DNA of 63,363 bases, counting the filler, from Craspedostauros australis (Eukaryota): the NCBI GenBank assembly GCA_030167865.1. It is 7 parts of 7 records of this genome, joined end to end, with 100 filler letters (N's around TTAATTAATTAA, not from the genome) between each part and the next. Parts side by side here need not be neighbours in the genome. Positions count along the whole stretch, not along the records: positions 33,244 to 39,778 come from JALAGF010005609.1; 6 more parts are not named here. The stretch is one strand, 5' to 3'. The position numbers and the translations under genes are program-made. The notes below the pieces were generated by a model. That model was not told where the DNA came from and did not search any database. It worked only from the letters and a program-made list of their open reading frames with translations. Positions 4,216 to 57,301 of the stretch are shown one piece after another. Position 1 is the first letter of the stretch, and the number at the start of each line of letters is the position of its first letter.

Positions 4216-6657
4216 TCAGCATTCGATANNNNNNNNNNNNNNNNNNNNNNNNNNNNNNNNNNNNNNNNNNNNNNNNNNNNNNNNNNNNNNNNNNNNNNNN
4301 NNNNNNNNNNNNNNNNNNNNNNNNNNNNNNNNNNNNNNNNNNNNNNNNNNNNNNNNNNNNNNNNGTTGGGATCCGGTTGTTGAACAGCACGCATGCTGGT
4401 TCTCTCGTTTTCGTCCCGATGATATTCTCCAGTTGGGTAGCAGTTCTGGTCGCCTCGGCCCATAATTTTCCTCGGACATTTTTCGGCAGGTGCGTGTGAT
4501 TGAGCATGGCTCGGACTTTCCCGTACAACGTGGCNNNNNNNNNNNNNNNNNNNNNNNNNNNNNNNNNNNNNNNNNNNNNNNNNNGCGTAACCCATCCACG
4601 TAAGTTGGGATCCGGTTGTTGAACAGCACGCATGCTGGTTCTCTCGTTTTCGTCCCGATGATATTCTCTAGTTGGGTAGCGGTTCTGGCCGCCTCGGCCC
4701 ACAATTTTCCTTGGGCATTTTTCGGCAGGTGCGTCTGGTTGAGCATGGCTCGGACTTTCCCGTACAACGTGGAGAATTTTCTTTCCACGCGACCGTTCTG
4801 TTGCGGNGTNGATGCCGCAGTGTACTCGAACGTTGGACCGAACCCTGCGACGAGCAGTTGCTTCTCCGCNGAATAATTTTCTCCTGCGTTGTCACATCTG
4901 ATAATTTTCACTCGTGTTTGCTGATTGGCGTGGAGCCACTTAAGCAACAGAATCATTTTTGTTCCAACCTCACTCTTCTCCTTCAAGAAATAGCTCCAGC
5001 AGTAGTCACTGTAATCATCGAGGACTAGGAGCCAATATTTTCCTTGTCCGTAGCTGTGTGACTGGACACTTGATGTGTCAATGAACAGTCGATCACCAAC
5101 CCCCTTCGCTCGTGATTGGAGTTTCTTCGTCATGGCCTTCTGCCTTTGTTTGCCAATGGCACAGTCCACACATNNNNNNNNTTTGCCTGTGACGTTCCAA
5201 CCGTATCGTCCCGCTGTGCGAGAGATCGTGTAAGTGTCAACATGGCCTAACATTTTATGGATTTGGTTGATGTCCACCGCGGTCTGGGTGGACACGCCAA
5301 CATTGGCTTGGTCGTGGGAGTGTGGGGCGGTGGTCATGTTAACACCGCTCACGAACCCACTGTGGGTAGCCATAAGCCGGTCAAACGTGATACGTTGTCC
5401 GCGCTTCTCCAGGCTCATCACAACACCGCGGTTGCTGATGTTGAAGCCGCTCTCAAGCGCTTTGTTGATGCTGAGGAGGTTCACCCACAAATTGGGCACG
5501 AACTTCACGTGCTTGAGGAGGATGGTTGCGGTGGTACCGTTNNNNNNNNNNNNNNNNNNNNGCTTGTCGCCCACCTTTGTTGCCTTGATGTAGCGACCGC
5601 TGCCGATCTTGATGGAGTGGTCGGCCACGCGCACGTTGGTCATCCCCTCGTCGTTGTTGGTCAGGTGGCACGAGGCACCTGAGTCACCCAACCAAGTGTT
5701 TGCCTCATGGCGGTCTGGGGCGAGCGTGATGCGGCGTTCTTCGACGCNNNNNNNNNNNNNNNNNNNNNNNNNNNNNNNNNNNNNNNNNNNNNNNNNNATC
5801 ACCATTGCCATGTCTGGTTGCGGGTTTCTCTCGCTGTAGATGGGGAGTTCAGGGAACGCGTTTGGGCTGCGAACTCCGTAGAGGCCTGGGTGGTACTTCC
5901 ACATGACTTGGAGTGCTCCACGCGAGGCCAGGCTCCCGATGAGTCCATGGTGGATGGCTGGCAGCTGCTCCTTCTCCAGCCTTTCGTTGATGAACGGCAT
6001 GTTCTTCATGACGTTGAACGGAGTCATCATCCCAATTTCGCGTAGGAGGAAGTAGAGGGTGCGAGCATCCGCGCAAGTGCGTCTGTCTCTCGAGTTGTAC
6101 TCCTCCACTGTGTCGAGGCACAGCAAGGCAAGCTCGGANCGCACNCTGTCAGCCGGCATGGCGTTGCTCAATGAGTATCGCACTGCGAGTGCGAGGGACT
6201 CCTCCTTTGCGAGCATTGCGCGGCGTTCATCGCGTTCTTCGTGGGCCGTTGGTTTCACCACGTCCGTTCCTTCCGGTAGATCAATGAGGAATGGCTGGGC
6301 TGGACAATCGACGCAGTACGAGTAGATGTACCCTTGCTTGAAGCACAATGGGCACGATGCCCATCCTTGGTACATTGCGCGCCCTGCTGCTTCGATCGTC
6401 TTCTCGATGGGAGACTTGTTGGTGGAGAGCGAGAAGACAGGCTCTCTGCAGATGTCTTCCGCTCCGATCACCATTGCCACTTCGTTGGTGGTTTCCTCTT
6501 CGGTGCTGACGAGGTCTTCATCGTAGATGACCTCGTCGAAGAACCCGTCGTCGTCGGTGGACTCGTCTTCGGACGGGAAGAGTTCGCGGTTGATGCGCTC
6601 GGCTGCGACCGCTGGTGGTCCGTAGTGACCATACACCCCTGGGTGGTGGGCCGCCCG
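4216..6657 (-). CDS. Copia A pol: extra Zn-ribbon domain + aspartic protease + integrase (fragment)
   Basis: CPLC-x9-CVDC domain, then DSGA protease, HHCC and DDE integrase core. The first codons of the ORF track (6658-6708) are LTR-derived. Confidence 0.9.
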   Translation of the reverse strand, partial: RAAHHPGVYGHYGPPAVAAERINRELFPSEDESTDDDGFFDEVIYDEDLVSTEEETTNEVAMVIGAEDICREPVFSLSTNKSPIEKTIEAAGRAMYQGWASCPLCFKQGYIYSYCVDCPAQPFLIDLPEGTDVVKPTAHEERDERRAMLAKEESLALAVRYSLSNAMPADXVXSELALLCLDTVEEYNSRDRRTCADARTLYFLLREIGMMTPFNVMKNMPFINERLEKEQLPAIHHGLIGSLASRGALQVMWKYHPGLYGVRSPNAFPELPIYSERNPQPDMAMVXXXXXXXXXXXXXXXXXXVEERRITLAPDRHEANTWLGDSGASCHLTNNDEGMTNVRVADHSIKIGSGRYIKATKVGDKXXXXXXXNGTTATILLKHVKFVPNLWVNLLSINKALESGFNISNRGVVMSLEKRGQRITFDRLMATHSGFVSGVNMTTAPHSHDQANVGVSTQTAVDINQIHKMLGHVDTYTISRTAGRYGWNVTGKXXXCVDCAIGKQRQKAMTKKLQSRAKGVGDRLFIDTSSVQSHSYGQGKYWLLVLDDYSDYCWSYFLKEKSEVGTKMILLLKWLHANQQTRVKIIRCDNAGENYXAEKQLLVAGFGPTFEYTAAXXPQQNGRVERKFSTLYGKVRAMLNQTHLPKNAQGKLWAEAARTATQLENIIGTKTREPACVLFNNRIPTYVDGLRXXXXXXXXXXXXXXXXXPRCTGKSEPCSITRTCRKMSEENYGPRRPELLPNWRISSGRKRENQHACCSTTGSQXXXXXXXXXXXXXXXXXXXXXXXXXXXXXXXXXXXXXXXXXXXXXXIEC

Positions 6658-8692: not shown

Positions 8693-8733
8693 CAATCAAA
8701 GACGGGCACAACTCGCCGTCAGTCGGAGATTGT
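8690..8733 (+). promoter_or_regulatory. Candidate stop-codon readthrough signal (UGA-CAAUCA, 8-nt spacer, stem or pseudoknot)
   Basis: TGA 8690-8692, CAATCA 8693-8698, stem GACGG 8701-8705 / CCGTC 8716-8720. Loop ACAACTC can pair with GAG(A)TTGT at 8726-8733. Confidence 0.6.
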
Positions 8734-9244: not shown

Positions 9245-9344
9245 NNNNNNNNNNNNNNNNNNNNNNNNNNNNNNNNNNNNNNNNNNNNTTAATTAATTAA
9301 NNNNNNNNNNNNNNNNNNNNNNNNNNNNNNNNNNNNNNNNNNNN
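9245..9344. other. Artificial contig spacer
   Basis: 44N + TTAATTAATTAA (stops in all six frames) + 44N. Confidence 0.97.
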
Positions 9345-23874: not shown

Positions 23875-24125
23875 TCGACTTTTGGAGCTTGTGGATTTGT
23901 TAGATTGTTGGCTTGTTGGCTTGATCGGTGTGGGTGCAATGATGGGCGTGCTTTCCTAAACTGGTGGTTGATGTCTTTATCGATGTCTGTGCTTTCTGTT
24001 CTTTTGTGTGTGAGTGTATGTACGCGTATGTGTGCGAGTATGTCTGCGTGTGATGCTTGCATGCGATTGCGCTCTTGAGTTTTGCTTCTTGCTGTGTTTA
24101 TGGTTCAACAGGCCACGCAGCACTG

Positions 24126-24225
24126 NNNNNNNNNNNNNNNNNNNNNNNNNNNNNNNNNNNNNNNNNNNNTTAATTAATTAANNNNNNNNNNNNNNNNNNN
24201 NNNNNNNNNNNNNNNNNNNNNNNNN
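24126..24225. other. Artificial contig spacer
   Basis: 44N + TTAATTAATTAA + 44N. Confidence 0.97.
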
Positions 24226-30000: not shown

Positions 30001-32771
30001 GCATCCAGTTGGCACTGACTGGTCCTCGAACCGCAGCCAAATACCTAGGGATGATGTCTCGAAGAGACGGTAAGCAAACAGAGCACGCCAGCTACCTCCT
30101 CAACAAATCGAGGGAGTGGGCGGAACGCATCAGAACGTCCCGGATCAGTAAACAGGACACGGAAATCGCCCTCAAGTCCGTGCTGTGGCCGTCGTTGACC
30201 TACTCCGCTCCTGCCACCACCATGTCTCCAGCCCAGTGGCGCACAGTGATGAGCACCGCCCTGACCGCGGCTCTTCCGTCCATGGGTATCGCCCGGACAA
30301 TCGCCAGGGAGTATGTCTTCGGCCACGTTGACACCATGGGCATGGGGGTGCACAACCTGCACACGGTGCAAGTCATCTCCCATCTCTCCATGGTGATGCA
30401 ACACTTCGAGCAAGACACGGAAACAGGCCGGCTGCTACGCTCCTCGCTTCGACACCTCGAACTGTGGACCGGACTGCCAGGGCAGCTGCAACAGCATGAA
30501 CGTAAATGGAAGACCTGGACGGCCACAACGTGGTGGCAAAACACCTTCCACACCGCCTCACAGCTCGGCATCGTCATGACAGACCAAAGCAGTGCTGCCC
30601 GCCGACCGCGCCGCGGTGACGAGACCATCATGCACCTAGCCATTCAAGCAGGAGTCCCTACGACAACGCTGGGCCTGGCTAACATCGCCCGCATACACCT
30701 CAGAGCGCTTTGGTTGTCGGACATCACCTCTGCCTGTGGCACGCACATCCTGCCCGACATCCTGCGACGATCCAGGCTGCCGCCAGGCACAACCACGTGG
30801 CCCAAGACGGGGACCGTAACCCGGACAGCGTGGGAAGCTTGGGAACATGTGCTGGCAACGCTGGTGGCTGCAGACAGACCAGGTTGGCATGTGCAGGCGA
30901 CCCTCGGCCTGTGGTACCACGCACCCTCACGCCGCGCTGCTCAACTCCCAGACGGAACGATCAGGCTACCAGGTCAGGCAAGGGCCCAAGACGCCAACGG
31001 CCCTCGTCCAACGCGTGTGGTCGACCGATCTGCCCGGCGATCCGGAGCAGCCACCACAGCATCGGGGGGCATTCAAGCCCGCGCCAACCCGACCTCCATT
31101 CGTGCTTGGTTACACCACAAAGGCCCCGCAGCCATCGCCATGCTACCAACACTGCAGATCCAAGGCGACGTCCGCCAAATCGTTCAGTCGATCACGACCG
31201 GCACATGCGCAGCCTGCAGCGATGCGTCCGCGAAACACAGCAAAGGCGCAGCCGCAGCAGTTATTCAAAGTGCGGTCGGAGACGACACACACCAGATCGT
31301 CGCCACATCCGCAGTTCCCAAGGGGTCGCACCCGACAGACTCCAACCGGGCCGAACTTGCTGGCGTGCTCATGTCCATATGGGTGGTGACTTCCATTGCA
31401 GAGTGGGCAGGTGTGTCTGGCGGCGCCACCATCGCGTGCGACAACGACAGGGCACTCAGGTCTGTGACCGCTTCCCAGTGGCCCGACCCCAGGCGGCCCG
31501 ATCACGATCTCAGAGCAGAAATCGTCCGACTGCTGCGCAAAACAGCGGTGCAATTCCAGCAACAGGAAGTGAAAGGCCATGCAGATGACTCCGGCCAGCC
31601 TCTCACGGAATGGGAAACCATGAACGTCGCCGCCGACGCCCACGCAGGCCGACAATGGGAGATCTCGAGCCAGGCCGGATGGAGCAATGATATTCCCCCA
31701 GTACCCACTGGAGGATGGACCTTGCTCGCAGGCGCCACGCCCATCACCGACCTCGACTACTGGACGGTGCACAATGCCCTTGATGGCACCAGCATCCAAC
31801 TCAAGTGGTGTCGGCGCTGGGGACATGCACACCCCTCTGAGGTGGACTGGATGCCCATACGGACCAACTCCCGACGTTGGCAAGGCGGCAGACGTCGCAC
31901 ACTGCTCAAGCTTATGGCTGGCGCAGGCGCTAGCGGCAAGAATATGCAGCGACGACAGCAGGAGGCCTCTGCCACATGCCCCAGGTGCGGCCAGCCGGAA
32001 GACAATTCACACGTTCTCATGTGCCCCAGTGCATCCAGTCAGGCCATTTGGTCCAGGACGATGCTCAAGGTGCGGTCAATCGTGCGACCGCCAACCACGC
32101 CACTGTTCGTTGCTCAATTGCTATGTACGGCCATCACCCGCATCTCCACAGGAGGCATTCCCCCGTCAGGCATTCGCGACTCTCCCACCAAGAGTATCCA
32201 GCAACAGCAGGCGAAAGTGGGGTGGAATGCCATAATGTGGGGCGGGTGGGCCACGGCCTGGCGAGAGCATGCCCCTCCTGCAGATCAGCGCCGCCGCAGA
32301 CGACTGCCCCGACAACTCCGAGACTGGCAAGCCAGTGTGACAAGTCTGCTGTGGCACGCGATCCTGGAGCAGTGGAAAGACCGCAACGAGGTTAAGGCCT
32401 CGCAGCTCGCCGACGATATGGTGGAGCTGCTCGAACAGCAGGCCCTCCAAATCCAGTCAGTGGCGCCAGCACTCGTTCCGCCCCCGCTGCGACCCCTCTG
32501 GGACCAGCCACCTCCTATACAGCAAACCCGCGCCCTCGCGGAATGGGTACAGGCCATGCACAACGCACTCGGCCACCACAGCCCCCCTCTCCCGAAGGTG
32601 CTCTCCAACTGGATGCTCAATGTCCGGCGAAAGGCAACCTCCACCTCCGACTCCGCCCACGCTACGACACGACACGCCAATCTTCCACCGAGACCTGAAG
32701 TGTTCCTCTCGGCAACCACGGCTGCCACACGACTTCACTCCGTTCCCGCAATGTGCCATCACGTTGAATAG
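27003..32771 (+). CDS. LINE ORF2: APE endonuclease + RT + RNase H + C-terminal CCHC
   Basis: APE: IATLNIG, ITEV, GGDVN, IDGIW, DHRAV. RT: QYGSR, NDAKGCYDRI, QGLGSAP, YVDD, KYLG. RNase H: SDAS, NRAEL, CDN, VKGHAD, NVAAD. C-terminal CPRC..HVLMC. Confidence 0.96.
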   Translation: MIVSHNRAQSSSNNNGPDNQEELRPDGSISQQQHIGQTTQPKPKGHIRIATLNIGSLPPDPTEPKNDDLWQFTRQHHIDILLITEVGLNWNQVPTDTTLAHRAERHLRMVKTSTSHYQTTARNPRQWGGTAVLIHGNAAGRVLSRSNDPNQSGRWASMLLQGKQGIKVRVVSIYVPTKSTQTTGTVYNQQAIKAAQRGSNLEPIDLLIDDLQTQISLWKQAGETIIVGGDVNMDIRRSKISTMLQSEGMHEHHSKQINHPYATMIRNTRGIPXXXXXXXXXXXXXXXXXHSKQINHPYATMIRNTRGIPIDGIWTTSDIRPSQLGLTAYSGWDHRAVWMDIVAANLLGPSKQPTTPFRGRRLQLNQPATVRRYTEEYTEQANNKRLRARAEALNSDIGEGPITTTQIRELEAIDKDRTQAILHAERHCRRVRAGAVPFSPALSKIHWEHRFWTLSIKRRKGHNIKGRTVDKARKKAKLSALTRHMTLTEMGRRRNDAWRRYRQAKQDAANHRRTFLADDEAEVSRTGRDTVKYRAQIQQREDTRAAYRRIGWALKANGEDSQVSIVIDDGPGGQGNLLTSGEDVARACCNNNIDKYSQAWLAEVCQRPLKRSLGRFGTSAAATAILHGIVPSQINANTNEVLQALHQPPQASPWPRLNTTITHESHSEGWSRIKESTSSGPSGIHFGCWKANAKVPELALIDAILREIPYRTGYSLQRWQQCTDIQLRKKPGNLAVTKTRTIGLMEGDFNMNNRLLGKQARSHAESNGTIAAEQYGSRKAHTAQEVLLNTTLIDDVGRVTGLHYAVCSNDAKGCYDRIAHPIFGLALRRQGVPAAPIESTLRTLQAMTHRIRTAAGTSTASYSGKQRGQFLQGLVQGLGSAPTGWLLISSAIIDSMRRRGHGLSLPDPITNAGHVITGTAYVDDTNVMQSLQADTPNAQATAFQASVDHWDNLLTATGGALEPTKSFWQLIRFKWHRTQWNYDLSTPTTGVHMNSPDGQRIQLALTGPRTAAKYLGMMSRRDGKQTEHASYLLNKSREWAERIRTSRISKQDTEIALKSVLWPSLTYSAPATTMSPAQWRTVMSTALTAALPSMGIARTIAREYVFGHVDTMGMGVHNLHTVQVISHLSMVMQHFEQDTETGRLLRSSLRHLELWTGLPGQLQQHERKWKTWTATTWWQNTFHTASQLGIVMTDQSSAARRPRRGDETIMHLAIQAGVPTTTLGLANIARIHLRALWLSDITSACGTHILPDILRRSRLPPGTTTWPKTGTVTRTAWEAWEHVLATLVAADRPGWHVQATLGLWYHAPSRRAAQLPDGTIRLPGQARAQDANGPRPTRVVDRSARRSGAATTASGGIQARANPTSIRAWLHHKGPAAIAMLPTLQIQGDVRQIVQSITTGTCAACSDASAKHSKGAAAAVIQSAVGDDTHQIVATSAVPKGSHPTDSNRAELAGVLMSIWVVTSIAEWAGVSGGATIACDNDRALRSVTASQWPDPRRPDHDLRAEIVRLLRKTAVQFQQQEVKGHADDSGQPLTEWETMNVAADAHAGRQWEISSQAGWSNDIPPVPTGGWTLLAGATPITDLDYWTVHNALDGTSIQLKWCRRWGHAHPSEVDWMPIRTNSRRWQGGRRRTLLKLMAGAGASGKNMQRRQQEASATCPRCGQPEDNSHVLMCPSASSQAIWSRTMLKVRSIVRPPTTPLFVAQLLCTAITRISTGGIPPSGIRDSPTKSIQQQQAKVGWNAIMWGGWATAWREHAPPADQRRRRRLPRQLRDWQASVTSLLWHAILEQWKDRNEVKASQLADDMVELLEQQALQIQSVAPALVPPPLRPLWDQPPPIQQTRALAEWVQAMHNALGHHSPPLPKVLSNWMLNVRRKATSTSDSAHATTRHANLPPRPEVFLSATTAATRLHSVPAMCHHVE

Positions 32772-33143: not shown

Positions 33144-33243
33144 NNNNNNNNNNNNNNNNNNNNNNNNNNNNNNNNNNNNNNNNNNNNTTAATTAATTAAN
33201 NNNNNNNNNNNNNNNNNNNNNNNNNNNNNNNNNNNNNNNNNNN
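33144..33243. other. Artificial contig spacer
   Basis: 44N + TTAATTAATTAA + 44N. Confidence 0.97.
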
Positions 33244-33484
33244 TTGCGGTTTGTCTGGTAGATGCTATTGGGGGTTGCGGCAATCATGGGTATCTTTGCA
33301 CTTAATACCATTCCGGTTCCGGTCAGTTCTCATGGGATCTGCGGTAGAATAAGGTATCTTTGCAAAGTCGTACCCCCGATTCCTGACACCCTTCCATTGT
33401 CGCATCACCATACTCACTCACACTCACAAATCATCTCTCGTCACACTCCCTTGTCTCGCTCTCGCACTCATCTCTTCTGTCCCA

Positions 33485-35683
33485 TTAATCCATGGTCGAT
33501 CTCAATTGAATGATACTCCCTTTGTGTCTTTCGTAGATCTCCTTCTTTGTGTTCTTCGTGAAGCCGTCTGCGATGTTGTCCTCTGAGCGCACAAACTGAA
33601 TTCGTGCCTCTCCGTTGTCTATCAGCTCCCGGGTGAAATGATGTCGTATATCGATGTGTCTCTTTCGTGCTGATGTAGACGGATTGGAGGCAATGAAGAT
33701 GGCCCCCACATTGTCCACATACACATCCACTGGTTTGGTCATCGTCAAGCCAATGTCCTCCATCAGTTGTGTGAGGAAGCGAATCTCTTTTCCTGCTTCT
33801 GATAAGGCGACGTATTCCGCCTCTGTTGAGCTGAGAGTTACACTTCGTTGTGCCTTCGATCTCCATACAATGGGCACCCCTTGCAATAGGACGAGATGTC
33901 CCCCGACACTGATCCGGTTATCCTTGTCTCCCGCAAACTCGCTGTCTGCGTAGATCTCGATTTTCCATGCGTCGTTCTCCAGTGGGGTTGGTTGGATTCG
34001 TAGCCCGTATTCCCTCGTGTCCGATACGAACTTCATTACTCGCAGCATCTCCTTGTATGCAGCAGCTGATGGTCCGTCCAATACTTTGGTAAGCTCACGT
34101 ACCGCATTCGCGATGTCTGGTCGCGAGTGCTTCACCAAGTATAGCAGCATACCTACTCCGCTTCGGTATCTGCTGTGTCTGTCACTGTCCACTTTGGGTA
34201 GGTCGCTGTTTCTCTGGATACCCTGTCCTGGTGTTCCTGGAGTTCCGTATCGTTGTAGAGTCAGCACATCATCCTTGAATGTATCGATGATGTTCTTGAT
34301 GATGTGTGGCTGGTTCACCCAGCAATTCGACTGGTCGTTGTTGAAGATGATCTTGCAGCTGAGGTAGTCTTCGAGGTCGTTCTCCACCTTGATTCCGAAT
34401 CGTTCAGCCTTAATGTCGATCGTCAGTTGCTTCAACTCCTCCTTTTCTCCGATGCATAGGCAGTCGTCGACGTAGGTGCCTATTAGCAGCAGTTTCCCTT
34501 CCTGATTCCGTATCAGAAGGCATGGATCCACAGCGCTCTGTCGAAATCCCAGTTTGAGTAGAATGTCGACCAGCTTTTTGTTCCATTGTCTGGCGCTCTG
34601 CACTAGTCCGTAAATGGTTTTCTTGAGCAGCAAGCATTCGTCGGCCTCATGCCTCATCCCCTTGGGGCATTGCATGTAGATCTCTTCGTCAAGTTCTCCA
34701 TGCAGGAATGCTGTCTCGAAGTCGATGATTATACTGTCCATGTGCAACACCATCTTCATAGTGAGCATGATGCGGTAGGTTGCGTCATGAATCACTGGTG
34801 CGTGGTGTGCTGAGAAGTCTACTCCTGCGATCTGTGAGTAGCCGCAGGCGACGAGTCTGGCCCGGAAGACTCCGTTCCTCTTCTCCTTGAATACCCACTT
34901 GGTCTTCACGCATCGCCGATCTCTCGGCATTCGGTTCCTCTTGATCTTCTCCCATACTCCTCTTCTGATCATATCGTTGAACTCCTTATTGATGGCCTCT
35001 CTCCACTTCGTTCTCTTCTCGGGATCTGCATGGTCCCAGCATTCTTCGAAGGTGGTAGGGTCTAGCATCATAGCTACGCTTGCTTGCTCGGGTCTGACTC
35101 GATCATTCGTCACTTGGCTCGCAGCGATGAAGTCATCCAATCGCATCTTTCCGTGAGTGGTGTCTATCATCATCCCTGCGACGTCTCTGTTGAACATGGA
35201 CCCGTCTGTATGGAAGCTCGGCCCCTCTGTCGCCGCTGTTTCGGCTTCTGTCTCTTGGGCAGTCTCTTGCTTCTCATCGTCGGATTCGGAGGTCTCGCTG
35301 GATCCGTAGTCTCTATCCTCCTTAGGAACGGGCGAGTTGTTGTACCCTGCGAGATCTCTGACCANNNNNNNNNNNNNNNNNNNNNNNNNNNNNNNNNNNN
35401 NNNNNNNNNNNNNNNNNNNNNNNNNNNNNNNNNNNNNNNNNNNNNNNNNNNNNNNNNNNNNNNNNNNNNNNNNNNNNNNNNNNNNNNNNNNNNNNNNNNN
35501 NNNNGGTAGCAGGTCGTCCTGGTCTAGCGCGGCTTCCTCTGTATCGCCTTGTTCTTTGGTTCTGCTGCGCTGGTCATCGTCATCGGTCTCTATATCATTC
35601 ATACTATTCGATTGACGAAGCCAAGTCACTCCTCTCTCTGGAGACGAGTCTCTTGATGAGGAGTCGTCGTCTGAGTTCATCAC
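33485..35683 (-). CDS. Copia B RT + RNase H
   Basis: KWVFKEK..RARLVACGYSQ, YVDD, YADSEFAGD, SSTEAEY, NIADGFTK. Confidence 0.95.
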   Translation of the reverse strand: MMNSDDDSSSRDSSPERGVTWLRQSNSMNDIETDDDDQRSRTKEQGDTEEAALDQDDLLXXXXXXXXXXXXXXXXXXXXXXXXXXXXXXXXXXXXXXXXXXXXXXXXVRDLAGYNNSPVPKEDRDYGSSETSESDDEKQETAQETEAETAATEGPSFHTDGSMFNRDVAGMMIDTTHGKMRLDDFIAASQVTNDRVRPEQASVAMMLDPTTFEECWDHADPEKRTKWREAINKEFNDMIRRGVWEKIKRNRMPRDRRCVKTKWVFKEKRNGVFRARLVACGYSQIAGVDFSAHHAPVIHDATYRIMLTMKMVLHMDSIIIDFETAFLHGELDEEIYMQCPKGMRHEADECLLLKKTIYGLVQSARQWNKKLVDILLKLGFRQSAVDPCLLIRNQEGKLLLIGTYVDDCLCIGEKEELKQLTIDIKAERFGIKVENDLEDYLSCKIIFNNDQSNCWVNQPHIIKNIIDTFKDDVLTLQRYGTPGTPGQGIQRNSDLPKVDSDRHSRYRSGVGMLLYLVKHSRPDIANAVRELTKVLDGPSAAAYKEMLRVMKFVSDTREYGLRIQPTPLENDAWKIEIYADSEFAGDKDNRISVGGHLVLLQGVPIVWRSKAQRSVTLSSTEAEYVALSEAGKEIRFLTQLMEDIGLTMTKPVDVYVDNVGAIFIASNPSTSARKRHIDIRHHFTRELIDNGEARIQFVRSEDNIADGFTKNTKKEIYERHKGSIIQLRSTMD

Positions 35684-38600
35684 TCTGGATCTGTTGGCAT
35701 CCTTGATACCNNNNNNNNNNNNNNNNNNNNNNNNNNNNNNNNNNNNNNNNNNNNNNNNNNGGTCATATCGTTGAACTCCTTATTGATGGCCTCTCTCCAC
35801 TTCTTCCTCTTCTCGGGATCTGCATGGTCCCAGCATTCTTCGAAGGTGGTAGGGTCTAGCATCATAGCTACGCTTGCTTGCTCGGGTCTGANNNNNNNNN
35901 NNNNNNNNNNNNNNNNNNNNNNNNNNNNNNNNNNNNTCATCTTTCCGTGAGTGGTGTCTATCATCATCCCTGCGACGTCTCTGTTGAACATCGACCCGTC
36001 TGTATGGAAGCTCGGCCCCTCTGTCGCCGCTGTTTCGGCTTCCGTCTCTTGGGTAGTCTCTTGCTTCTCCTCGTCAGATTCTGAGGTCTCTCTGGATCCG
36101 TAGTCTCTGTCCTCCTTAGGAACGGGCGAATTGTTATACCCTGCGAGATCTCTGACCATTCTTGGTACGTACGCAACAGGTGTTGCGACTGGAGTCGAGG
36201 GCGGTTCTTTCTCTACCGTTCTTTCCTCACTCCTTCCATCCTCGTCCCTTCCGGATTCATCGCCGACGTCTTCGTCTGGTTCCTGATCCTCCTGGACGGG
36301 TAGCAGGTCGTCCTGCTCTAGCGCAGCATCTTCTGAATCTCCTTGTTCTCTGGCTCTGCTGCGCTTGTCATCGTCATCGGTCTCTATGTCACTCATACTG
36401 TCCGATTGACGAAGCCAAGTCACTTCTCTCTCTGGAGACGAGTCTCTTGATGAGGAGTCGTCGTCGTCTGCGTTCATCACTCTGGATCTGCTGGCATCCT
36501 TAATACCTTTGAACTCTCCATACGACTTATTCAACCATGTTACGTCTCGAGTCATCAGGATTCTCGAGGTAGCAAGGTTCATCATACGGTACACTCCTTT
36601 CGCGTGCGACTCTCCGTATCCCACGAACATGGCAGGTTTGGAGCGGTCGTCTAGCTTGGTCTTGATAGTCTGTCCACCGATGTGTACCATCCCCATCTCA
36701 CCGAACACACGCAGGTCATTCGCATACTTCGGGATTTTTCCGTTTAACAGTATACACGCTGGCTCCCTTGACTTCGTGCCAATGATGTTCTCCAGCTGCG
36801 TTGCCGTGTGAGCAGCCTCTGCCCACAGCTTCCCTCGCGTTGTTTTTGGTAGATGGGTTTGGTTNNNNNNNNNNNNNNNNNNNNNNNNNNNNNNNNNNNN
36901 NNNNNNNNNNNNNNNNNNNNNNNNNNNNNNNNNNNNNNNNNNNNNNNNNNNNNNNNNNNNNNNNNNNNNNNNNNNNNNNNNNNNNNNNNNNNNNGAACGA
37001 TTCTCTCCTGCGTTGTCACATCTGACATTTTGAACCGTTACTCGCTGATTCGCCTGGAGCCATTGGAACAACAAAAGCATCTTCGACCCCACATCGCTTT
37101 TCTCTGTGATGAAATAACTCCAGCAGTAGTCACTGTAATCGTCGATCACAAGAAGCCAGTATTTGCCCCTTCCCAGGCTGTGTGTCTGAACACTCGATGT
37201 ATCCATGAACAATCGATCCCCGACNNCTTTCGCTCGTTGTTGAGTCGCNTTCGACATNGGTCTCTGNCGCGATTTCCCAATCGCGCAGTCAACACACACG
37301 TTNAGTTTTCCTGTCANGTTCCAGCCGTACCTCCCTGCTGTTCGAGAGATGGTGTACGCGTCAACGTGGCCTAACATTTTATGAATTGTGTTGATGTCGA
37401 CTGGTGCGTCGGTTGACACACCAACATGAGCTTGGTCGTCCGCCTTGGCATTGCTCACCATGTTCACTCCGCAAACGAAGCCGCTCTGGGTCGCCATGAT
37501 GCGATCGAAGCTGATGCGCACGCTGCCCTTCTTCAGACTGATCACGATGCCGCGATTGCTAATGTCGAACCCGTTTTCGAGAGCTTTATTGATGCTCAGC
37601 AGGTTCACCCATAGCTTCGGCACGTACTTCACTGACTTGAGTACGACGATGGATGTCCTTCCATTCTTCTGCATGACGGTCATGCGCTTGTCGCCCACCT
37701 TGGTTGCCTTGAGGAAGCGTCCGTTTCCGATCTTCACCGATTGGTCGGAGACTTGGACGTTGGTCATTCCCTTGTCACAGTTGGTGAGATGGCACGATGC
37801 ACCTGAATCGCCCAGCCAGGTGTTGCTTTCGTAGTGATCTGGTGCGATGGCGGATCTCTTTGCATCGACGTCGTTCACGTTCCCGATCATCAGAGCTACC
37901 TCGTGGTGATCGTCGTGTTCCGTGTAGAGCGGTAACACTGAGAGCGCTGGGTTCGAGTCTCGAACCCCTTTGTTGCTGCTGTGATGCATCCACAGGATGG
38001 AGTGCGAGGCATGGAGGGTCATGCAGGAGATCAGATTGCTAGGGAAGGGTTGGCGATAGTGCGCTTCCAAGCTGTTGTTGATGTTGCAGGGGTTGCGACA
38101 AACGGCCATCGTAGTAATCATGCCGATGTCATGCAGCTTGAAGTACACGGAGCGTGGTTCAATCTGTGGAGTATGGTCCCCCGTGTGAGTATGCACAGCA
38201 TCGTAGCACAATAGGGCGAGTTCGTTTCGCACCTCGTTGGCTGGGAGTACGTTGCTCAACGACGCTCGAATGGCGTAACGGAGGGAACCGGTCCTTGCGA
38301 GCAGGGCGCGGCGCTCCGCGCGTTCCGCATCGTTGCTCGGCACATCCCCGCGTGGGTCGTTGTGGAGCTGGATGAAGAATGGGACTTGGGGGCATTCCAC
38401 GCACCATGCGTAGAGCGGTCCTCGCTTGAGGCACAAAGGGCACCAGGCCGTGTTGGTGGTGAGCCGTGCTGCGTTCTCGATCATCCGCTCCACGAGCGTG
38501 TGCTCAGGGGCGAAGTTGTACACCGGACGGTGTGGCTGCCTTCCTTGGTTGGCTTCCCCCATGTCATCGTCGACATCTTCGGTGTCGGTGGCCCCTTCGT

Positions 38601-39778
38601 TGGTGAGGCTTGCGTCGTAGTAGGAATCTTGTCCTTGGTTGGAGTTGCTCATCTTGTTGTTGACGTTGTATGGTCTCAAAGAAAGAATGGGAGATGTGTC
38701 AGTCTGTTCGACGATGGCTGCAAAGGCGACGTCCTCCATTACCTTGGAGTCAGCTTGGTAGTTGCTGTTGTTGTCGCGTGTTTTCACCTCGCCTGTGTTC
38801 ATAGACAAGTTGGTCACATTTTCCGATTCGTTCGTGTTTCCCGAGGTGGGCACACAAATTAATTCGTCTGTCATCACAAGAGCTACGTCGTTATTTCCCT
38901 CCATCCCATCAGTTGCCACATTAGCCGAGTCTGCCTCTTTCATGGCTGCCTTCAGCTTGAAACACTGTAGGATCTTGTGTCTCTTCTTACCGCAGTACTT
39001 ACACTCCCCATTGAACTTGGGCTTGCTGTTGTTGTCTCCTTCGCCACTCTTCTTGTTCTTGCCGTTGCCTTTCTTGGGGGCGGAGCGACAGTCTGCCTTC
39101 TTGTGGCCGTAGGCGCCACAGTTGCGGCAGTGACCTTTGAAGCCTCCTACTGCAGCGAATGCAGTCTCTTCCCTGTTGCTGGTGCTCTCACGTCTGTTGC
39201 CGCCGAGCTTGAGGTGTCGCCCGTCGTAGGTGGCGCTGACAGCCTCGCGGATGTCTTCGAGGGTCATGGTGTCCTCCATACCGTCGAACTTGAGCTCCAA
39301 GAGCTTGACGTCCGTCTCGTATTCCCTTCCGAGGGCGTTGAGTTCGAGCATGTGGTACTGTTGCATATCCATCTTGATGCCAGTACTACCGAGGCGATTA
39401 CGCAGCACTTCCATCTCAGTTAAGAACGTGTCTGGGTGCTCACCTTTCTTCAACCGCATCCCGTTGAGTTGAGCCAACAACTTTGCCTTGACAGGCGCAG
39501 TACGCTGCTCGTAGATGCGTTCAAGGGCCTTCCACGCCTTGCGTGGGTCTCCACTNTCAGTGGGTCCNCCCTTGGTTCCCACCACAGCCATGAAGGCGAC
39601 ATCGCCTTCCGTAGTTTCATGGTTGATCGCCATGGTCAGTTCTTCAAACGCGCACTTGGCCAGCCCATTCTTGTATACCTCCTTCTCCTCAGCGGTCATC
39701 GAGGCTATCTTCTTCGCGATAGACTCACCCTCTTCGATCTTCACATCGGAGATGAGGGCGCTGGGGCCGAAGGGAGCT
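35680..39778 (-). CDS. Copia B Gag, extra domain, protease and integrase (single frame)
   Basis: CRNCGAYGHKKADC and CKYCGKKRHKILQC knuckles; CPLC-x9-CVEC; WLGDSGASCH; HHCC; DDE. The split from the RT ORF falls at a gap-flanked duplication. Confidence 0.93.
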
Positions 39779-39878
39779 NNNNNNNNNNNNNNNNNNNNNN
39801 NNNNNNNNNNNNNNNNNNNNNNTTAATTAATTAANNNNNNNNNNNNNNNNNNNNNNNNNNNNNNNNNNNNNNNNNNNN
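39779..39878. other. Artificial contig spacer
   Basis: 44N + TTAATTAATTAA + 44N. Confidence 0.97.
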
Positions 39879-40617
39879 GACAGATCACATCACCGCTCAC
39901 CGAGCAGGAGAGCAACAGACACCAAACTTTAGGATTGTATATATATACTATATACGATGCTAAAATAGAAAGACGAGTACAGGAACACGCACACGAGCTA
40001 AGTCCGGAGAGTTTAACTTTGGTTGATGCTGTTTTTAGCCTTTTTTGTTCGGGACTTACGTAGAAAATGTACTACATTCTACAGAGCAGTTTCTGTGATC
40101 CAAACATCGCCAAACATCGCCAATTTGTTTGGCTACAGCCGGCTCTTCGAGGCACTAGACTCCGTAGATCAGCCTGTGGAGAAGGAACAATCTCAGTGAT
40201 GCTTCGCAAGAGATCCAATCAGGTGTCTGCGAAAGAATGTGTTCGCAGCACGTGCTAACTTAGTGCAACAAGTCGGAAGCAGATGTCCGCGAGTCCCATA
40301 CACTCTTCTTCGCGAACATCGTTGCCAATCAGCGCGCCAGAAACAATGTCCAACGGCAAATGAGCACGCAAGGGTGCGCAATGCGTTTTTCCGGTTTCGC
40401 TCACCACTCACAGAGCAGTTAACGGCCTTTTCCATCGTTGCCATCGCATTGTCCACTCCGGCCTCATCGTCGACAGTCACAACCACAACCACAGCTGAGC
40501 TGAGTGGAGCAGAGTGGAGACGCATCCATCCATCCATTCTCACAACCATAGAAGCAATCAACAGCAATCAACATCAACAATCATACCATCAACATCATCA
40601 ACATTGTCAATAACAAC

Positions 40618-41700
40618 ATGGTGCGACATCGACAGACCGCGAGACATTCACGGTCCGATCCCGAGCCCGTGTTCACACCAGAGCCACGCGCAGCTGCCCG
40701 ATCCAGCAGACGCAGACCCTGGCAATGGCCGGTGCTGGCCTTGTTGGCCCTCATCCTGCCGGCGCTGCGTCTGCAGCAGCTCGTTTCCGACTTCGTCGCG
40801 CCACCGGCCTTGCTGCAGGGTGGTTCGTCATTGGCGGAAGCCAAGATGAAGGCCAACGAACAGAAACTGAGACGACGTGAGGACCCCAAGAAGGTGGTCA
40901 CGTCCGCCGCATCGCCCGCGGTCACGACGCGCAAGTTCTCACCCGGAAAGGCCAAGCACAAGAAGGCGTCGCATCAGCATCACCACCACCACAAACATGC
41001 ATCCAACGACTCAGACGAGGACGACGAGAACGTCCTCACGGTCACCGTCCAAAAGGGCAGTTACAACGACTTCTGGCAAGTCCTCGACTGCAAACACGCC
41101 GACAAGGTCCACATCCCGACGCCCGAGACCTTCCTCCTCTTGCGCCAAAAGTACGAGGAAATGATAGCGCGCCACCCCAATGCCACGTCGTCGATCCGCA
41201 ACAGCCGCACGACATCCGATCTCACGGGTTCCGGTTTCGTCGTCGACGTCGCCATCGAGATCGCACCCAAGATGGGTCGCGGTGTCTTTGCGCGCCAATT
41301 CATCAAAAAGGGCACCAAGGTCGCCGACGATCGTTACACGGCCGTCTTCAGGACGGGCGATCAGTATCGTGATTTTCTGCTCAACATCCCACCGCAATTG
41401 GCCTGCGATGTCCTCGTCTGGGCCTACGCCACGAAGAATCCTTCCGTCGGCAACTGCGATTTGGATGAGAATTCGTTGCTCAACACGGCCGGGCGCAACG
41501 CCGCCGTCAATGTGCGGGAACGCAAGTTCCTGTCGATCGACAGTAAAGCGGACAGCGATGATAGCGATAGCGATGATGTGGCTCTGGAACTGTACGCGAC
41601 GAAAGATATTCAAAAGGGGGAGCAGCTCATCATGAATTACGGTGATTTCGATTGCTTGACGTGTTGGGACGATATCGGTTTCAAGAATCCGTGGGTGTAG
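40618..41700 (+). CDS. SET-domain protein with an N-terminal signal anchor (BacSET-like methyltransferase)
   Basis: Basic N-terminus and hydrophobic WPVLALLALILPAL; SET motifs MGRGVFARQFIKKGT and LYATKDIQKGEQLIMNYG. Confidence 0.85.
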   Translation: MVRHRQTARHSRSDPEPVFTPEPRAAARSSRRRPWQWPVLALLALILPALRLQQLVSDFVAPPALLQGGSSLAEAKMKANEQKLRRREDPKKVVTSAASPAVTTRKFSPGKAKHKKASHQHHHHHKHASNDSDEDDENVLTVTVQKGSYNDFWQVLDCKHADKVHIPTPETFLLLRQKYEEMIARHPNATSSIRNSRTTSDLTGSGFVVDVAIEIAPKMGRGVFARQFIKKGTKVADDRYTAVFRTGDQYRDFLLNIPPQLACDVLVWAYATKNPSVGNCDLDENSLLNTAGRNAAVNVRERKFLSIDSKADSDDSDSDDVALELYATKDIQKGEQLIMNYGDFDCLTCWDDIGFKNPWV

Positions 41701-42382: not shown

Positions 42383-42873
42383 AAAAGGAAGCAGGTTCGA
42401 CGGGACTCGATGACACTTCAACCAAACGGAAGCAATGACTAGATTTGTCCGAGTAACACCGATTGATAAAGTGGTAATATCAATGAATCAAACGAAGACG
42501 TCGCTGCGACATTGCTTTGTCAACATCTCACAAACAACGAAGAAACACAACAAATGACAAAAAGCACTTTGGGGTCGTACTAGTCGTAAACTGAAGTATT
42601 TGATGCACTTGCCGGGTGTCCCCGCACAACACGATCGCTGAATTTGCGTTCTCATTGCAGTCGCAGTAGTCGAAATCGCCACGATGGCGCGAACAATTCT
42701 TGTCGCCCATCGTTGTTGTTGTGCTGAACGCAAAGCAAAACAAAAACGTGGACTTGCATCCACAATCTCCACATCATTCTTGGCGATGGCATTGGATTGT
42801 CATAAACTGCGACTCCACGCATACTACATTACGTATAGTACAATCGACACAGTACCACTACGCAACAACAACA

Positions 42874-45582
42874 ATGCCGCGCCCATGGCACCCCCTCGAG
42901 GCCAGGATGGCGAGATTGGCACACGACGAAGGCGATGCGGCCACCATCCACGAGAGCTTCATGATGCGTATTCGCCAGTTCAATCGGCAACGTGCCGACT
43001 GCGTGGCGCAGGCCTTGAACATCAGCATTGCCAGGGCTCAAGTGGAGATCTTTCAGACCACCAACACCTCCATCCCGTTGGATCGCACGCAGCGAGATCT
43101 CCAACACTTTCTTGCGCAGCGTCGCAGGGGTGGTGGGAGGGGTGGAAGGGGGGTTGATAGTGAGAGTGCTAGTGCTAGTGGGAGTGCTAGTGAGAGCGCC
43201 AGTGAGAGTGCTAGCGAGAGTGTCAGTGAGAGTGCTAGTGAGAGCGCCTGTGCTAGTGCTAGTGCTAGTGCTAGTGAGAGTGTCAGTGGGGGTGACAACC
43301 AGGGTGACGACGAAAGCAATAGTGTGATTGCCAATGACAGTGGCAGTTCCAGCGCAAGTTCCATCAACAGCGACAGTGAGAATGGCAGTGCCGATGAAAG
43401 CGGTAGCGAAAGCGAGGAAGTCTATGCGAGCGAAAGCGATAGTCGCCACAGCAGCATGCTCGAGGAAGACTTTGATGATGACGAAGCCTCCTTCCTCGTC
43501 GATGATGGCGCCGACAACGAAGATGGTTCGTACGACGATGCATGTCCGAACAATGACAGCAAGTCTGCTGCGCATCCTTCGGAGGAAAACATCGACGCAG
43601 ACATCGTGCAAACTCAGAATCAGCTCACGTGGATCGCGAAGGTCATCAAGGTGCGCACGAAGAGAGTCAAGCTGCTGAAGACGCAGACCAGGTTGCTTGC
43701 CTTGGAGAAGGAGAAATGTGAACTTGAGGCCCAGGTGGCGCAGCTCGAGCAGGAGACGCCATGCATCAAATTAGAAGCGCAGCAGCAATCACGGAAACGA
43801 TCGGCGCAGGAGGCATCACCGCAACCAACAGAGGCCGTGGAGGAGCAAGCATTGCAAGACCAAGCGCTGCAAGATACATCATCGCACGATCCACCACCGC
43901 AGAAGGATCAACCCACGGACGATTCATCAAATCATAGCCAACCGTTGGAAGCCCAGACTCAACCATCGCAAGATAAAGCGAAGCCACATCAAGCATTGCA
44001 ACGTCAACCACCACGATCTGCATCCATGCAAGATCAACTGCCGCAAGACCAACACGAGCGAGTGGAAGTTCAATCAGTGGAAGTTCAGTCAGCGCAACCT
44101 GCGTCTCATCAGGCCCAGCCAATGCACGAGCAAGCGACGCGCAAGCAACTGGAGCCAACAGCAGATCAACTACAGCACACGCTGACAAAGGAAGTCCAGT
44201 CAATCGAAGTCCAGCCAGCGGAAACTCCGCAACAGCAAACAATAACGCCACGAAAGCAACCGGCGCAAGCACAACCAGTGGGAGATCAGCCACAGCAAGT
44301 CGCGCCACATCAAGACCAACCAACGCAGCATCAACCACCGCAAGGGCAGCGCGAGCCAGTGGAAGTTCCGCAACCACAGAATCAGCCTTTGCGAACGACG
44401 CAAGTGGAAGATCCACCACAGCAAACCCAACTGCAGCAATCAAATTCACCGCAAGCCGAAGCACAACCCGCGAAGCCAGTAGTGCTGGCTGTGCAACAGC
44501 CACCAAAGCCAACGCAAGATCGAACTTTGCAACAGCAAGCCGAACCATCACAAGCTGAGCCGTCGCAAGCCACTCAAGTGCCAGCGAAACAAGTGCCAGC
44601 GAAACAAGTGCAAGGTAAGCTATTGCACATGAGATCAGCGCAAGCGAAACCACCACAAGTGCAGCCATTGCAAACTCAACAAGTGCTCTCTCGATCATTG
44701 CATTCTCGGTCATTGCATGCTCAGCCACTGAAAGCTCAGATCCCGCAGAAACAGCCGCCACAAGGCCAGCCCCAACTAGCGAATGGCCAGACCGCGCGCA
44801 AGGAATCACGACAACATGACATACAAACGGAACAGCATACCTCCTTGCAAGGGCAATCATCGCAAGACCAATCGATGCACATTCCGCAAGCGGAAACTCC
44901 GTCAGTGCAAGCTCAGCCAGCGCAAGCTCAGCCAGTGTCACTCGTGCATGGCCGGTCACTCCCTCGCGTGCAAGCTCGCAGACTGCCAATCGTGCAAGCT
45001 TGCACACTGCCAATTGTGCAAATTCCGCTACTCCCACGGGTGCAAGGTCGGATACCGCCACTCGTGCAAGCTCCTCCAGCGCAAGTGCGACGATCACAAC
45101 CTCCGCAACAGCGTGCCAAACCACCGCAACCGCATGCCAAGCAACTGTCACAGAAAGCAACTCAACAGAAAGCAACACAACAGAAAGTGTCGCAACAGCA
45201 AGCCCAAGCAAGGAAACGGCGCATCATACGACACCTCAACACTGTTCAACAAAAACATGGATCAAAGCAACGCCAAGCAATGCAACATGAAAAACAGCAA
45301 CAACCATCAAAGCAGCGTCAACTACTGCTGCAACAGACGCAGCGGGCTGCCCAGCACCATCAAGAACTGCAAGCGATGCGACAGCAACAACTGTGTTGGG
45401 AATACCGACTGTGGCAGCAACGTTACTGTGTTGGGGGAGAACAACAAACATGGCAACAGCAGCCGCCACGGCAAGAACAACAGCCACCACAACACGGCAA
45501 CGTTTCAACGCCACCAATGCCGTACCAGCAACATCAACAGCACTACAATGCATGGCGTTCGGATCATTCAACGCTTCCATGA
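42874..45582 (+). CDS. Low-complexity Gln/Pro-rich protein with an acidic Ser tract and a short coiled coil
   Basis: ~900-codon ORF from the ATG at 42874; AGTGCT/AGTGAG microsatellite at 43159-43290; no domain recognised. Confidence 0.75.
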   Translation: MPRPWHPLEARMARLAHDEGDAATIHESFMMRIRQFNRQRADCVAQALNISIARAQVEIFQTTNTSIPLDRTQRDLQHFLAQRRRGGGRGGRGVDSESASASGSASESASESASESVSESASESACASASASASESVSGGDNQGDDESNSVIANDSGSSSASSINSDSENGSADESGSESEEVYASESDSRHSSMLEEDFDDDEASFLVDDGADNEDGSYDDACPNNDSKSAAHPSEENIDADIVQTQNQLTWIAKVIKVRTKRVKLLKTQTRLLALEKEKCELEAQVAQLEQETPCIKLEAQQQSRKRSAQEASPQPTEAVEEQALQDQALQDTSSHDPPPQKDQPTDDSSNHSQPLEAQTQPSQDKAKPHQALQRQPPRSASMQDQLPQDQHERVEVQSVEVQSAQPASHQAQPMHEQATRKQLEPTADQLQHTLTKEVQSIEVQPAETPQQQTITPRKQPAQAQPVGDQPQQVAPHQDQPTQHQPPQGQREPVEVPQPQNQPLRTTQVEDPPQQTQLQQSNSPQAEAQPAKPVVLAVQQPPKPTQDRTLQQQAEPSQAEPSQATQVPAKQVPAKQVQGKLLHMRSAQAKPPQVQPLQTQQVLSRSLHSRSLHAQPLKAQIPQKQPPQGQPQLANGQTARKESRQHDIQTEQHTSLQGQSSQDQSMHIPQAETPSVQAQPAQAQPVSLVHGRSLPRVQARRLPIVQACTLPIVQIPLLPRVQGRIPPLVQAPPAQVRRSQPPQQRAKPPQPHAKQLSQKATQQKATQQKVSQQQAQARKRRIIRHLNTVQQKHGSKQRQAMQHEKQQQPSKQRQLLLQQTQRAAQHHQELQAMRQQQLCWEYRLWQQRYCVGGEQQTWQQQPPRQEQQPPQHGNVSTPPMPYQQHQQHYNAWRSDHSTLP

Positions 45583-51396: not shown

Positions 51397-52166
51397 GGTG
51401 GCATAGATGAATGTGAAAAGTTTCCTGGTCCTTGGTGCTTCTCCGTGATGTGGACAAACGAATACGCCATACAGTATCTCCTCACGCTTCACCAAGGAAT
51501 ACAAGCATGGAAACCACGGATGTACATGTACATGTGCATGGACGGCGGTGGTGGGTCATGAACGGTTGCGACTGAGGATGTGTGAGCGTTGAGAAGAATG
51601 GAATGCGTCAACCCACACCTTCGTTCGACAAGCAAATTATCCAAATAGGACGAAAGCATGAGAAGGTCGCTATCACCAACGCAACAGCTCTCAAATCCCC
51701 CTTCCCGCTCTGCGTTTGTTACTCAAGATCACTTACCTACTCTCCACTCTATGCGATGTCTAGACTGGAGTTGGCGAGATTGATTTGATTGATTTGTGTC
51801 TGCATCGGTTGCAATGCTTCCGGTATTCGCTTTGTGGTTGGTTTCTGGTGCATCATGGTTGCGCCACGAAATCAGCGAAGCCATGGTCGGAAATGGTCGC
51901 AAGAAAACGCGAGTTGTTTGGAGACGATGTCCCACCAGTACTTTCGATTAATACGATTCGTGAAGGGGAAGAAGCACAGAAAAAGCTGCCAACGCCCACC
52001 AACGAAGAATCAAAGGCACACAGAGTGATCATCATCATTCCGAACATCCACCCCTGCTTGGCATTGGCAACGTGCGAGCAGACCATGCATCGCACGAGAG
52101 TGAAGCATCCACAGAAGCATCCGCAACTGCAATTGGACTATTAACAGAACTATTCCAATCGTCATC

Positions 52167-55572: not shown

Positions 55573-55672
55573 NNNNNNNNNNNNNNNNNNNNNNNNNNNN
55601 NNNNNNNNNNNNNNNNTTAATTAATTAANNNNNNNNNNNNNNNNNNNNNNNNNNNNNNNNNNNNNNNNNNNN
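55573..55672. other. Artificial contig spacer
   Basis: 44N + TTAATTAATTAA + 44N. Confidence 0.97.
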
Positions 55673-57201: not shown

Positions 57202-57301
57202 NNNNNNNNNNNNNNNNNNNNNNNNNNNNNNNNNNNNNNNNNNNNTTAATTAATTAANNNNNNNNNNNNNNNNNNNNNNNNNNNNNNNNNNNNNNNNNNN
57301 N
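57202..57301. other. Artificial contig spacer
   Basis: 44N + TTAATTAATTAA + 44N. Confidence 0.97.

Follow-up and report, generated by a model that had tools for sequence, protein, structure and literature searches.

Gains of new domains by retrotransposons with long terminal repeats (LTRs) are considered rare, and chromodomain, envelope-like and AlkB gains change either integration or the dealings of the element with its host. In betaretroviruses the nucleocapsid (NC)-dUTPase domain lies upstream of the protease (PR), and to our knowledge it is the only known case of a domain gained at the nucleocapsid-protease junction. The accessible part of a survey covering 4,811 Copia-type consensus sequences from plants records domain gain in none of them, and describes envelope-like and AlkB open reading frames (ORFs) among the gains of LTR elements (PMC9289625). 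For the Ty1/copia group, the available portion of another source describes sirevirus Gags whose C-terminus is large and whose CCHC arrays are duplicated or triplicated, and a chromodomain gained on integrase by the diatom CoDi-A elements (PMC2774666). Here we describe a predicted in-frame insertion in the linker between the nucleocapsid zinc knuckles and the protease of a Ty1/copia element from Craspedostauros australis (GenBank assembly GCA_030167865.1), referred to as element B, and a related sequence in a second element, A. Both lie in the window, that is, the whole stretch of 63,363 nucleotides analysed, filler included; B is the sole occupant of the piece at 33244-39778 (JALAGF010005609.1), and A lies on the piece at 1-9244.

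The closest relatives of B are seven polyproteins (P0003-P0009), recovered at E<=1e-10 among 1057 candidates from a collection of 5.8 billion protein clusters. These canonical Ty1/copia proteins resemble B in the order of Gag, two CCHC knuckles, PR, integrase (IN) and reverse transcriptase (RT)/RNase H, and their PR-IN regions are 31-41% identical to that of B. Element B carries recognizable Gag, protease and integrase domains; the ORF after it, at 33488-35779, holds an RVT_2-type RT (E 9.7e-40), and B is collinear by tblastn with P0004 and P0005; downstream of its protease, Pfam also identifies gag_pre-integrs (weakly) and SH3_retrovirus. Both A and B are polyprotein genes of Ty1/copia type, and B is classified as Ty1/copia (Pseudoviridae) on the basis of predicted domain order and RVT_2. 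Comparison of the B flanks did not recover a terminal repeat, and since both scaffold ends (33244 and 39778) fall inside the element, its LTRs lie outside the available sequence.

What distinguishes B from these relatives is the distance between the first cysteine of the second knuckle and the protease aspartate (residue 646), which amounts to 398 residues in B versus 64, 48, 64, 72 and 72 in the five of seven relatives that have knuckles; P0003 and P0006, which lack them, are uninformative on this distance. The short canonical linker (48-72 residues) is in agreement with what an earlier reading of this DNA, made from the sequence alone (the sequence-only reading), had supposed. Nothing resembling the B insert segment occurs between the second knuckle and the protease of these five proteins. 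Also, in tblastn alignments residues 318-332 of P0004 span nucleotides 38926-37881 of B, which leaves about 335 extra residues in the latter. Taken at the level of the predicted proteins, the comparison shows an in-frame insertion of about 335 aa in the knuckle-protease linker, made up of an acidic spacer followed by a segment conserved in A ( Table 1 ). The region 37318-39555 is free of N, and the knuckles, insert and protease of B are therefore contiguous. The spacer (residues 267-405, 139 aa) has a net charge of -19, a pI of 4.1 and a content of 62% S/T/N/Q/G/P/D/E, and is probably disordered.

The segment matches its counterpart in A with tblastn E values of 2.4e-41 and 2.6e-41 and 38.6-40.0% identity over 207-210 aa; no third copy was detected by tblastn within the window. 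Pairwise alignment of the two copies requires 224 columns for 220 residues, with few small gaps, and the insertion is collinear across two copies whose synonymous divergence is saturated. The sequence-only reading was accurate in locating the segment between Gag and protease on the minus strand of both elements, in the motifs that it quoted, every one of which is present in both copies, and in describing the segment as much more diverged (39-40% identity) than the adjoining PR and IN (73-74%). Two of its claims can be judged in B only. The segment does follow both CCHC knuckles in B, but A is truncated at its 5' end within the acidic spacer and has neither Gag nor knuckles; upstream of approximately nucleotide 6700, stops interrupt its frame and the sequence becomes a different one. 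Likewise, frame and spacing are preserved in the contiguous B copy, with few small alignment gaps, but a 50-N gap precedes the protease of A and makes frame continuity in that element uninformative.

A different repeat occupies the region beside the truncation point of A, at 6748-9244 (+) and 9345-10067; about 0.9 kb of it (6748-7688) recurs on the next scaffold at 9345-10067 with 86-96% identity. Neither of two ORFs in this region, at 7616-8689 and 8693-9289, matches a Pfam family, and the second of them contains a protease-like ILDSGADG motif. The window also holds fragments of another copia family, at 55673-57201 (+), where the start of an RVT_2 domain (56908-57201) shares 47-63% identity with P0004 and P0005, and at 60973-61635 (+), where the fragment is RNase H-like. 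These fragments lack the Gag-PR region and are therefore uninformative on the insert.

Conservation within the segment is uneven and is concentrated in a core at B residues ~434-545, where identity reaches 0.68 in 20-aa windows. All four cysteines of a CxxC-x9-CxxC (C4) motif are invariant between A and B, and this motif would most likely bind one structural zinc. A zinc ribbon has two conserved CxxC knuckles on beta hairpins that coordinate one zinc; here short strands are predicted about the CxxC pairs, at low confidence (predicted local distance difference test, pLDDT, <50), and no zinc-ribbon Pfam family was matched at E<=10. The C4 motif has the spacing C-x2-C-x3-G-x5-C in common with the first knuckle of B, as in the CCHC zinc knuckle family (PF00098), but differs from that family in having Pro (B) or Tyr (A) instead of His at position 9, a fourth Cys at +3 and no Pfam match. 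It may thus represent a degenerate third CCHC knuckle, in which the His was lost and a new Cys arose at +3. When the segment was compared by hhalign with five aligned canonical polyproteins, the sole alignment fell on CCHC knuckle 1, with a probability of 0.7%, and at this value we rejected the idea that the segment arose by duplication and divergence from elsewhere in the polyprotein. Low-confidence AlphaFold assignments (pLDDT <50) place one helix before the short strands about both Cys pairs, and some seven helices after them.

Table 1. Predicted features of elements B and A and gap-flanking direct repeats in the window.
Feature	Position	Strand	Residues or length	Basis or remark
B ORF (P0001)	35680-39744	-	1354 aa	
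B Gag, Retrotran_gag_2	39220..39549	-	66-175	Pfam PF14223, E 2.8e-09
B CCHC zinc knuckle 1	39088..39129	-	206-219	C-x2-C-x4-H-x4-C regex
B CCHC zinc knuckle 2	38962..39003	-	248-261	C-x2-C-x4-H-x4-C regex
B acidic low-complexity spacer	38530..38946	-	267-405	First part of insert
B conserved segment	37909..38529	-	406-612	tblastn to A; alignment with A
B C4 motif CxxC-x9-CxxC	38392..38442	-	435-451	The four Cys are identical in both copies
B best-conserved helical core (ERRA[LM]LA ... SLSN ... ELALLC)	38194..38316	-	477-517	Identity 0.60-0.68 in 20-aa windows; predicted helices
B LPLYTE (LP[LI]Y[ST]E), C-terminal end of segment	37918..37935	-	604-609	In both copies
B HEVALMIG motif	37882..37905	-		31 residues ahead of protease Asp
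B protease, Pol_BBD, DSGAS active site	37567..37818	-	643-726	Pfam PF22936, E 1.1e-14
A ORF	4216-6708	-		Protease and integrase, without Gag
A conserved segment	5830..6441	-		tblastn and alignment to B; single N at 6139 and 6145
A C4 motif	6304..6354	-		Alignment to B
A LPIYSE	5830-5847	-		Motif match
A scaffold gap	5748..5797		50 N	Separates A segment from A protease
A protease, Pol_BBD	5443..5694	-		Pfam PF22936, E 9.6e-13
Direct repeat, element B (copies start 34969/35763)	34969-36556		Spacing 794 bp	Abuts 50-N gap
Direct repeat, element A (copies start 4365/4604)	4365-4772		Spacing 239 bp	Abuts 50-N gap
Direct repeat	1319-1996		Spacing 422 bp	Abuts 50-N gap
Direct repeat	8218-8625		Spacing 249 bp	Abuts 50-N gap

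Selection was evaluated by codon comparison of A and B (95% bootstrap intervals; B residue numbering), expressed as the ratio of non-synonymous to synonymous differences per site (pN/pS). The segment as a whole (434-610) gave a value of 0.68 (0.56-0.85) and its N half (434-520) a value of 0.57 (0.40-0.79), against 0.22 (0.14-0.30) in PR and 0.21 (0.16-0.28) in IN, all of these being rough ratios because synonymous sites have reached saturation, with a pS of 0.59 for the segment and of 0.67-0.72 for PR/IN. Bootstraps in which pN/pS reached 1 numbered 0 (segment) and 1 (N half) per 1000. Jukes-Cantor dN/dS was ~0.5 for the segment (about 0.4-0.6, with saturated dS) versus 0.07-0.10 for PR/IN, and identity in the segment at codon positions 1, 2 and 3 was 0.54, 0.65 and 0.45, respectively. 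These data show that a core of ~110 residues, formed by the zinc motif and the ERRA[LM]LA-SLSN-ELALLC helices, is under purifying selection, and that the segment outside this core is constrained weakly or not at all. The claim of a conserved and selected domain thus stands for the core and N half, and fails for residues 556-586, which are indistinguishable from neutral, the C half being marginal. The sequence-only reading had proposed that a dN/dS near 1 together with the lack of a fold would speak against it; no fold was predicted (pLDDT 35 and 41) and dN/dS is about 0.4-0.6, at saturated dS, an outcome intermediate between support and refutation.

Long antisense ORFs (38215-38859 and 6280-6975, +) overlie, in both elements, the spacer together with the first part of the segment. 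In that frame, stops arise where the sense strand has the codons TTA, CTA and TCA, and we judge these ORFs to be a by-product of GC-rich codon use. Constraint imposed by them was considered and rejected, given that they lie mostly over unconserved spacer and that sense position 1 is more conserved than position 3 (0.54 vs 0.45).

GC content at third codon positions of the segment is 0.73, versus 0.70-0.77 in Gag, NC and PR, and hence there is no sign of recent foreign origin; recent capture from the host was rejected on these grounds and because no relative was recovered in any search. Net charge is close to zero, versus +15 in NC, which argues against simple nucleic-acid binding.

In order to find relatives of the segment, sequence, profile and pattern searches were performed. 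As anticipated, it is unrecognised in Pfam, where neither copy matched any family at E<=10, and among PDB sequences nothing scored below E 1.7 (the best match being an unrelated dehydrogenase). In the collection of 5.8 billion protein clusters, a word-indexed search of proteins of 744-2370 aa yielded 605 candidates, none at E<=0.001, and a search of those of 386-2000 aa with a two-sequence profile scored 7998 candidates, none at E<=0.01. Exhaustive hmmsearch of 1,835,955,588 protein representatives produced a single match, P0002 (708 aa, E 7e-07), which was rejected as spurious judging by its sequence, since it is internally repetitive and aligns through five stretches to profile positions 165-215 only. 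Pattern matches in metagenome contigs (158), viral contigs (99) and prokaryote genome contigs (239) gave no confirmed case, a degenerate form of the motif pattern had no match in the metagenome contigs, and the ESM Atlas returned no usable match to the segment query. The collections searched may contain few protist transposon ORFs, and even the closest relative in PR-IN reaches no more than 41% identity, so that these blank searches reveal an unsampled close lineage rather than uniqueness of the segment. Nor is the segment described in the accessible parts of PMC2806351, PMC2774666, 10.1101/2025.10.24.684338 and PMC3248453; Additional file 1 of PMC2806351, an image of CoDi structural features possibly containing relevant ORF sizes, falls outside this comparison.

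Set beside the described systems, the insert has several partial parallels. Sireviruses, also a copia lineage, likewise have a Gag that is enlarged in its C-terminal region and bears additional zinc motifs (accessible part of PMC2774666), but, comparing by description, the B motif is C4 and not CCHC, and has a conserved helical region after it and an acidic spacer between it and NC. CoDi-A elements are another case in which Ty1/copia elements of a protist acquired a domain, a rare event, but there it is located at the integrase C-terminus and is of known fold, according to the available portion of the same source (PMC2774666). Like this chromodomain, the envelope-like and AlkB gains of LTR elements occupy other positions than the insert. 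Tandem CCHC motifs, reported for CoDi6.2-6.5 in the accessible text of PMC2806351, are also found in B and are compatible with membership of CoDi, the diatom copia groups of Maumus et al. 2009, although they do not define a group. The NC-dUTPase of Mason-Pfizer monkey virus, in the part of PMC1802613 that is available, similarly consists of a domain added to the nucleocapsid protein; this domain is a known enzyme captured from the cell, whereas the segment has no detectable relative or enzyme signature.

Short motifs of the form [DE][VT]A[LFM] occur around the insert. In B they are found at residues 48 (inside Gag), 193 (before NC), 286 and 338 (both in the spacer, as [DE]VA[LF]) and 615 (ahead of the protease Asp by 31 residues). 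In A the motif is at residue 76, ahead of the segment. Among the relatives, the motif precedes NC in two of seven and PR in three (P0004, P0008 and P0009). P0007 has it at residues 472 (after PR) and 881 (after the IN region), which in our reading would be the PR/IN and IN/RT junctions; all other matches in the relatives correspond to the RT ETAFL motif (6/7). With a less strict pattern, composed after the matches had been seen, a single occurrence was counted in 8340 post-protease residues. The copies that bracket the insert are candidate protease sites.

The explanation that we favour, and hold tentatively, is that of a lineage-specific insertion of ~335 aa in the knuckle-protease linker of a single-ORF Ty1/copia element, in which a fast-evolving acidic spacer is followed by a partly selected zinc-motif segment acting at the particle. 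As part of the same tentative explanation, the N-terminal ~110 residues of the segment, comprising a short helix, the C4 motif and three conserved helices, would be what selection holds in place. The insert would be translated within the Gag-Pol polyprotein and, being part of this single product, would be there in the same number of copies as Gag and Pol when the particle assembles. The zinc site and helical core would then hang on an acidic flexible tether behind the basic nucleocapsid, from which the protease of the element probably excises the segment at the bracketing [DE]VA[LM]-type motifs. At the particle, the segment would probably lengthen the nucleocapsid end of Gag by one more zinc module, of non-basic character, or alternatively serve as a spacer timing the release of the protease; we consider the role of a free anti-silencing factor less probable. 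If true, such a selected orphan zinc module, placed where Gag meets the protease, would be a new instance of a gained domain for a protist copia lineage, and would provide a handle on particle assembly or protease activation in single-ORF copia elements. The case is a modest one, with two copies, weak constraint and no fold, and a function that is only inferred. The further claim that the domain defines a copia sub-lineage is left without support, as it relies on two copies 74% identical in PR/IN, and no other carrier was found in the collections searched.

Several observations weigh against the favoured explanation. Besides the roughness of the ratios, the C half of the segment is barely constrained (520-610; pN/pS 0.79, 0.61-1.03) and residues 556-586 behave as if neutral (0.95, 0.60-1.67). 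The frame must stay open for the downstream Pol, and therefore the absence of stops is no evidence of selection. AlphaFold, run on two-sequence alignments, reached a pLDDT of only 34.9 for 220 aa and 41.1 for the N-terminal 120 aa, and the recognition score of a protein language model was 1282, a value typical of shuffled sequences, where 2300 was reached by 91 of 100 known-family proteins and 9 of 100 shuffled ones. The link to a CCHC knuckle, at the hhalign probability obtained, is a hint and no evidence of homology, and the cleavage-site interpretation of the [DE][VT]A[LFM] motifs is post hoc. In addition, only two copies are available, both on small repeat scaffolds, each of which may be several copies collapsed in assembly.

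Alternatively, the insert may be a tolerated linker expansion without function of its own, produced by insertion or slippage in the variable Gag-PR linker and kept open because Pol lies downstream, and whose residual conservation reflects avoidance of misfolding or local protease sites. We regard such an expansion as rather unlikely, yet as a rival to be taken seriously in view of the weak constraint and the lack of a fold. In agreement with it, pN/pS is close to 1 at the alignable end of the spacer (373-405; 1.29, 0.81-2.33) and in the pre-zinc helix (405-434; 0.88, 0.58-1.41) as well as in residues 556-586, and the interval of the C half reaches 1; the lack of a confident fold prediction, the low language-model recognition and the absence of relatives in any collection searched agree with it as well. 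It accounts poorly, however, for the N half of the segment, where the upper bound of pN/pS (0.79) remains below neutrality, for four invariant Cys within 17 residues and 41 residues at 60-68% identity despite saturated synonymous divergence, and for the higher identity at codon position 2 (0.65) than at position 3 (0.45).

At a similar level of doubt stands the possibility of a new folded accessory protein with no detectable source, namely a C4 zinc and helical domain cut out on both sides that would recruit a host factor or modulate maturation of the particle; for Pseudoviridae this would amount to a domain gained between nucleocapsid and protease. Its stronger version, in which an independent protein freed from the polyprotein would serve as a host-factor ligand, in anti-silencing or in chromatin targeting, appears less probable still. 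The (L/P)PxY motif of retroviruses is a late-domain motif that binds WW-domain ubiquitin ligases. The LP[LI]Y of both segment copies resembles it and might serve as a PY-type ligand, although four residues shared by two sequences are weak grounds for this. Conservation of LP[LI]Y[ST]E at the end of the segment and the position of the bracketing motifs, which in relatives occur at or near domain junctions, are consistent with such a protein. So are, within the accessible parts of the respective sources, the positional precedent of the betaretroviral NC-dUTPase fusion (PMC1802613) and the alteration of LTR-element biology by domain gains (PMC9289625). In contrast, neither Pfam nor PDB sequences yielded any similarity to chromatin, RNA-silencing or WW-ligand families, and the anti-silencing, chromatin-targeting and host-factor-binding roles suggested by the sequence-only reading gained no support.

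A role of the segment as an N-terminal pro-region of the protease, delaying dimerisation until the polyprotein assembles, seems improbable. The transframe/p6* region of HIV is a protease pro-region of comparable kind, the segment lies immediately upstream of the protease, and in a single-ORF element without a frameshift to limit Pol such control of timing would be useful. Yet the hydrophobic pre-protease motif of three of the seven relatives is kept after the segment, at B residue 615, and the N-terminal context of the protease thus looks unchanged.

The quality of the draft assembly was also considered. The window consists of seven small scaffolds joined artificially by linkers of the form N44-TTAATTAATTAA-N44 (9245-9344, 24126-24225, 33144-33243, 39779-39878, 55573-55672 and 57202-57301), which contain stops in all six frames (6/6) and, being artificial, leave the sequences on either side without physical linkage. 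Because of this concatenation of small scaffolds, several copies may have been collapsed by assembly into each of the elements described. Within the scaffolds, several 50-N gaps are bordered by overlapping sequence of 92-98% identity, and short-range direct repeats 92-100% identical abut such gaps; the polyprotein frame is interrupted by the 794-bp repeat in B and by the 239-bp repeat in A. These gap-flanking repeats look like contig ends of repeat copies left unmerged and not like true tandem duplications. Small linker-joined scaffolds and many 50-N gaps with overlapping near-identical flanks could suggest that unrelated sequence was chimerically joined into the polyprotein of a poor draft, but this is scarcely credible in view of the same arrangement on two separate scaffolds at 39-40% identity, the N-free stretch that unites the knuckles, segment and protease of B, and a composition like that of the rest of the element.

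Apart from the copia elements, one of the scaffolds carries a non-LTR retrotransposon of the long interspersed nuclear element (LINE) type at 26799-32768 (+), with a 1990-aa ORF encoding Exo_endo_phos and RVT_1 domains. An N-free open frame of 1474 aa at 12563-16984 (-) has no Pfam match at E<=0.001. Apparent host genes encode a BTB_2 protein (22075-23955, -), a SET-domain protein (40552-41697, +) and an ankyrin-repeat/BTB protein (49600-51555, -), and a further one, at 42670-45579 (+), consists of a Q/P/S-rich ORF of 970 aa with a 12-nt tandem array at 43119-43400.

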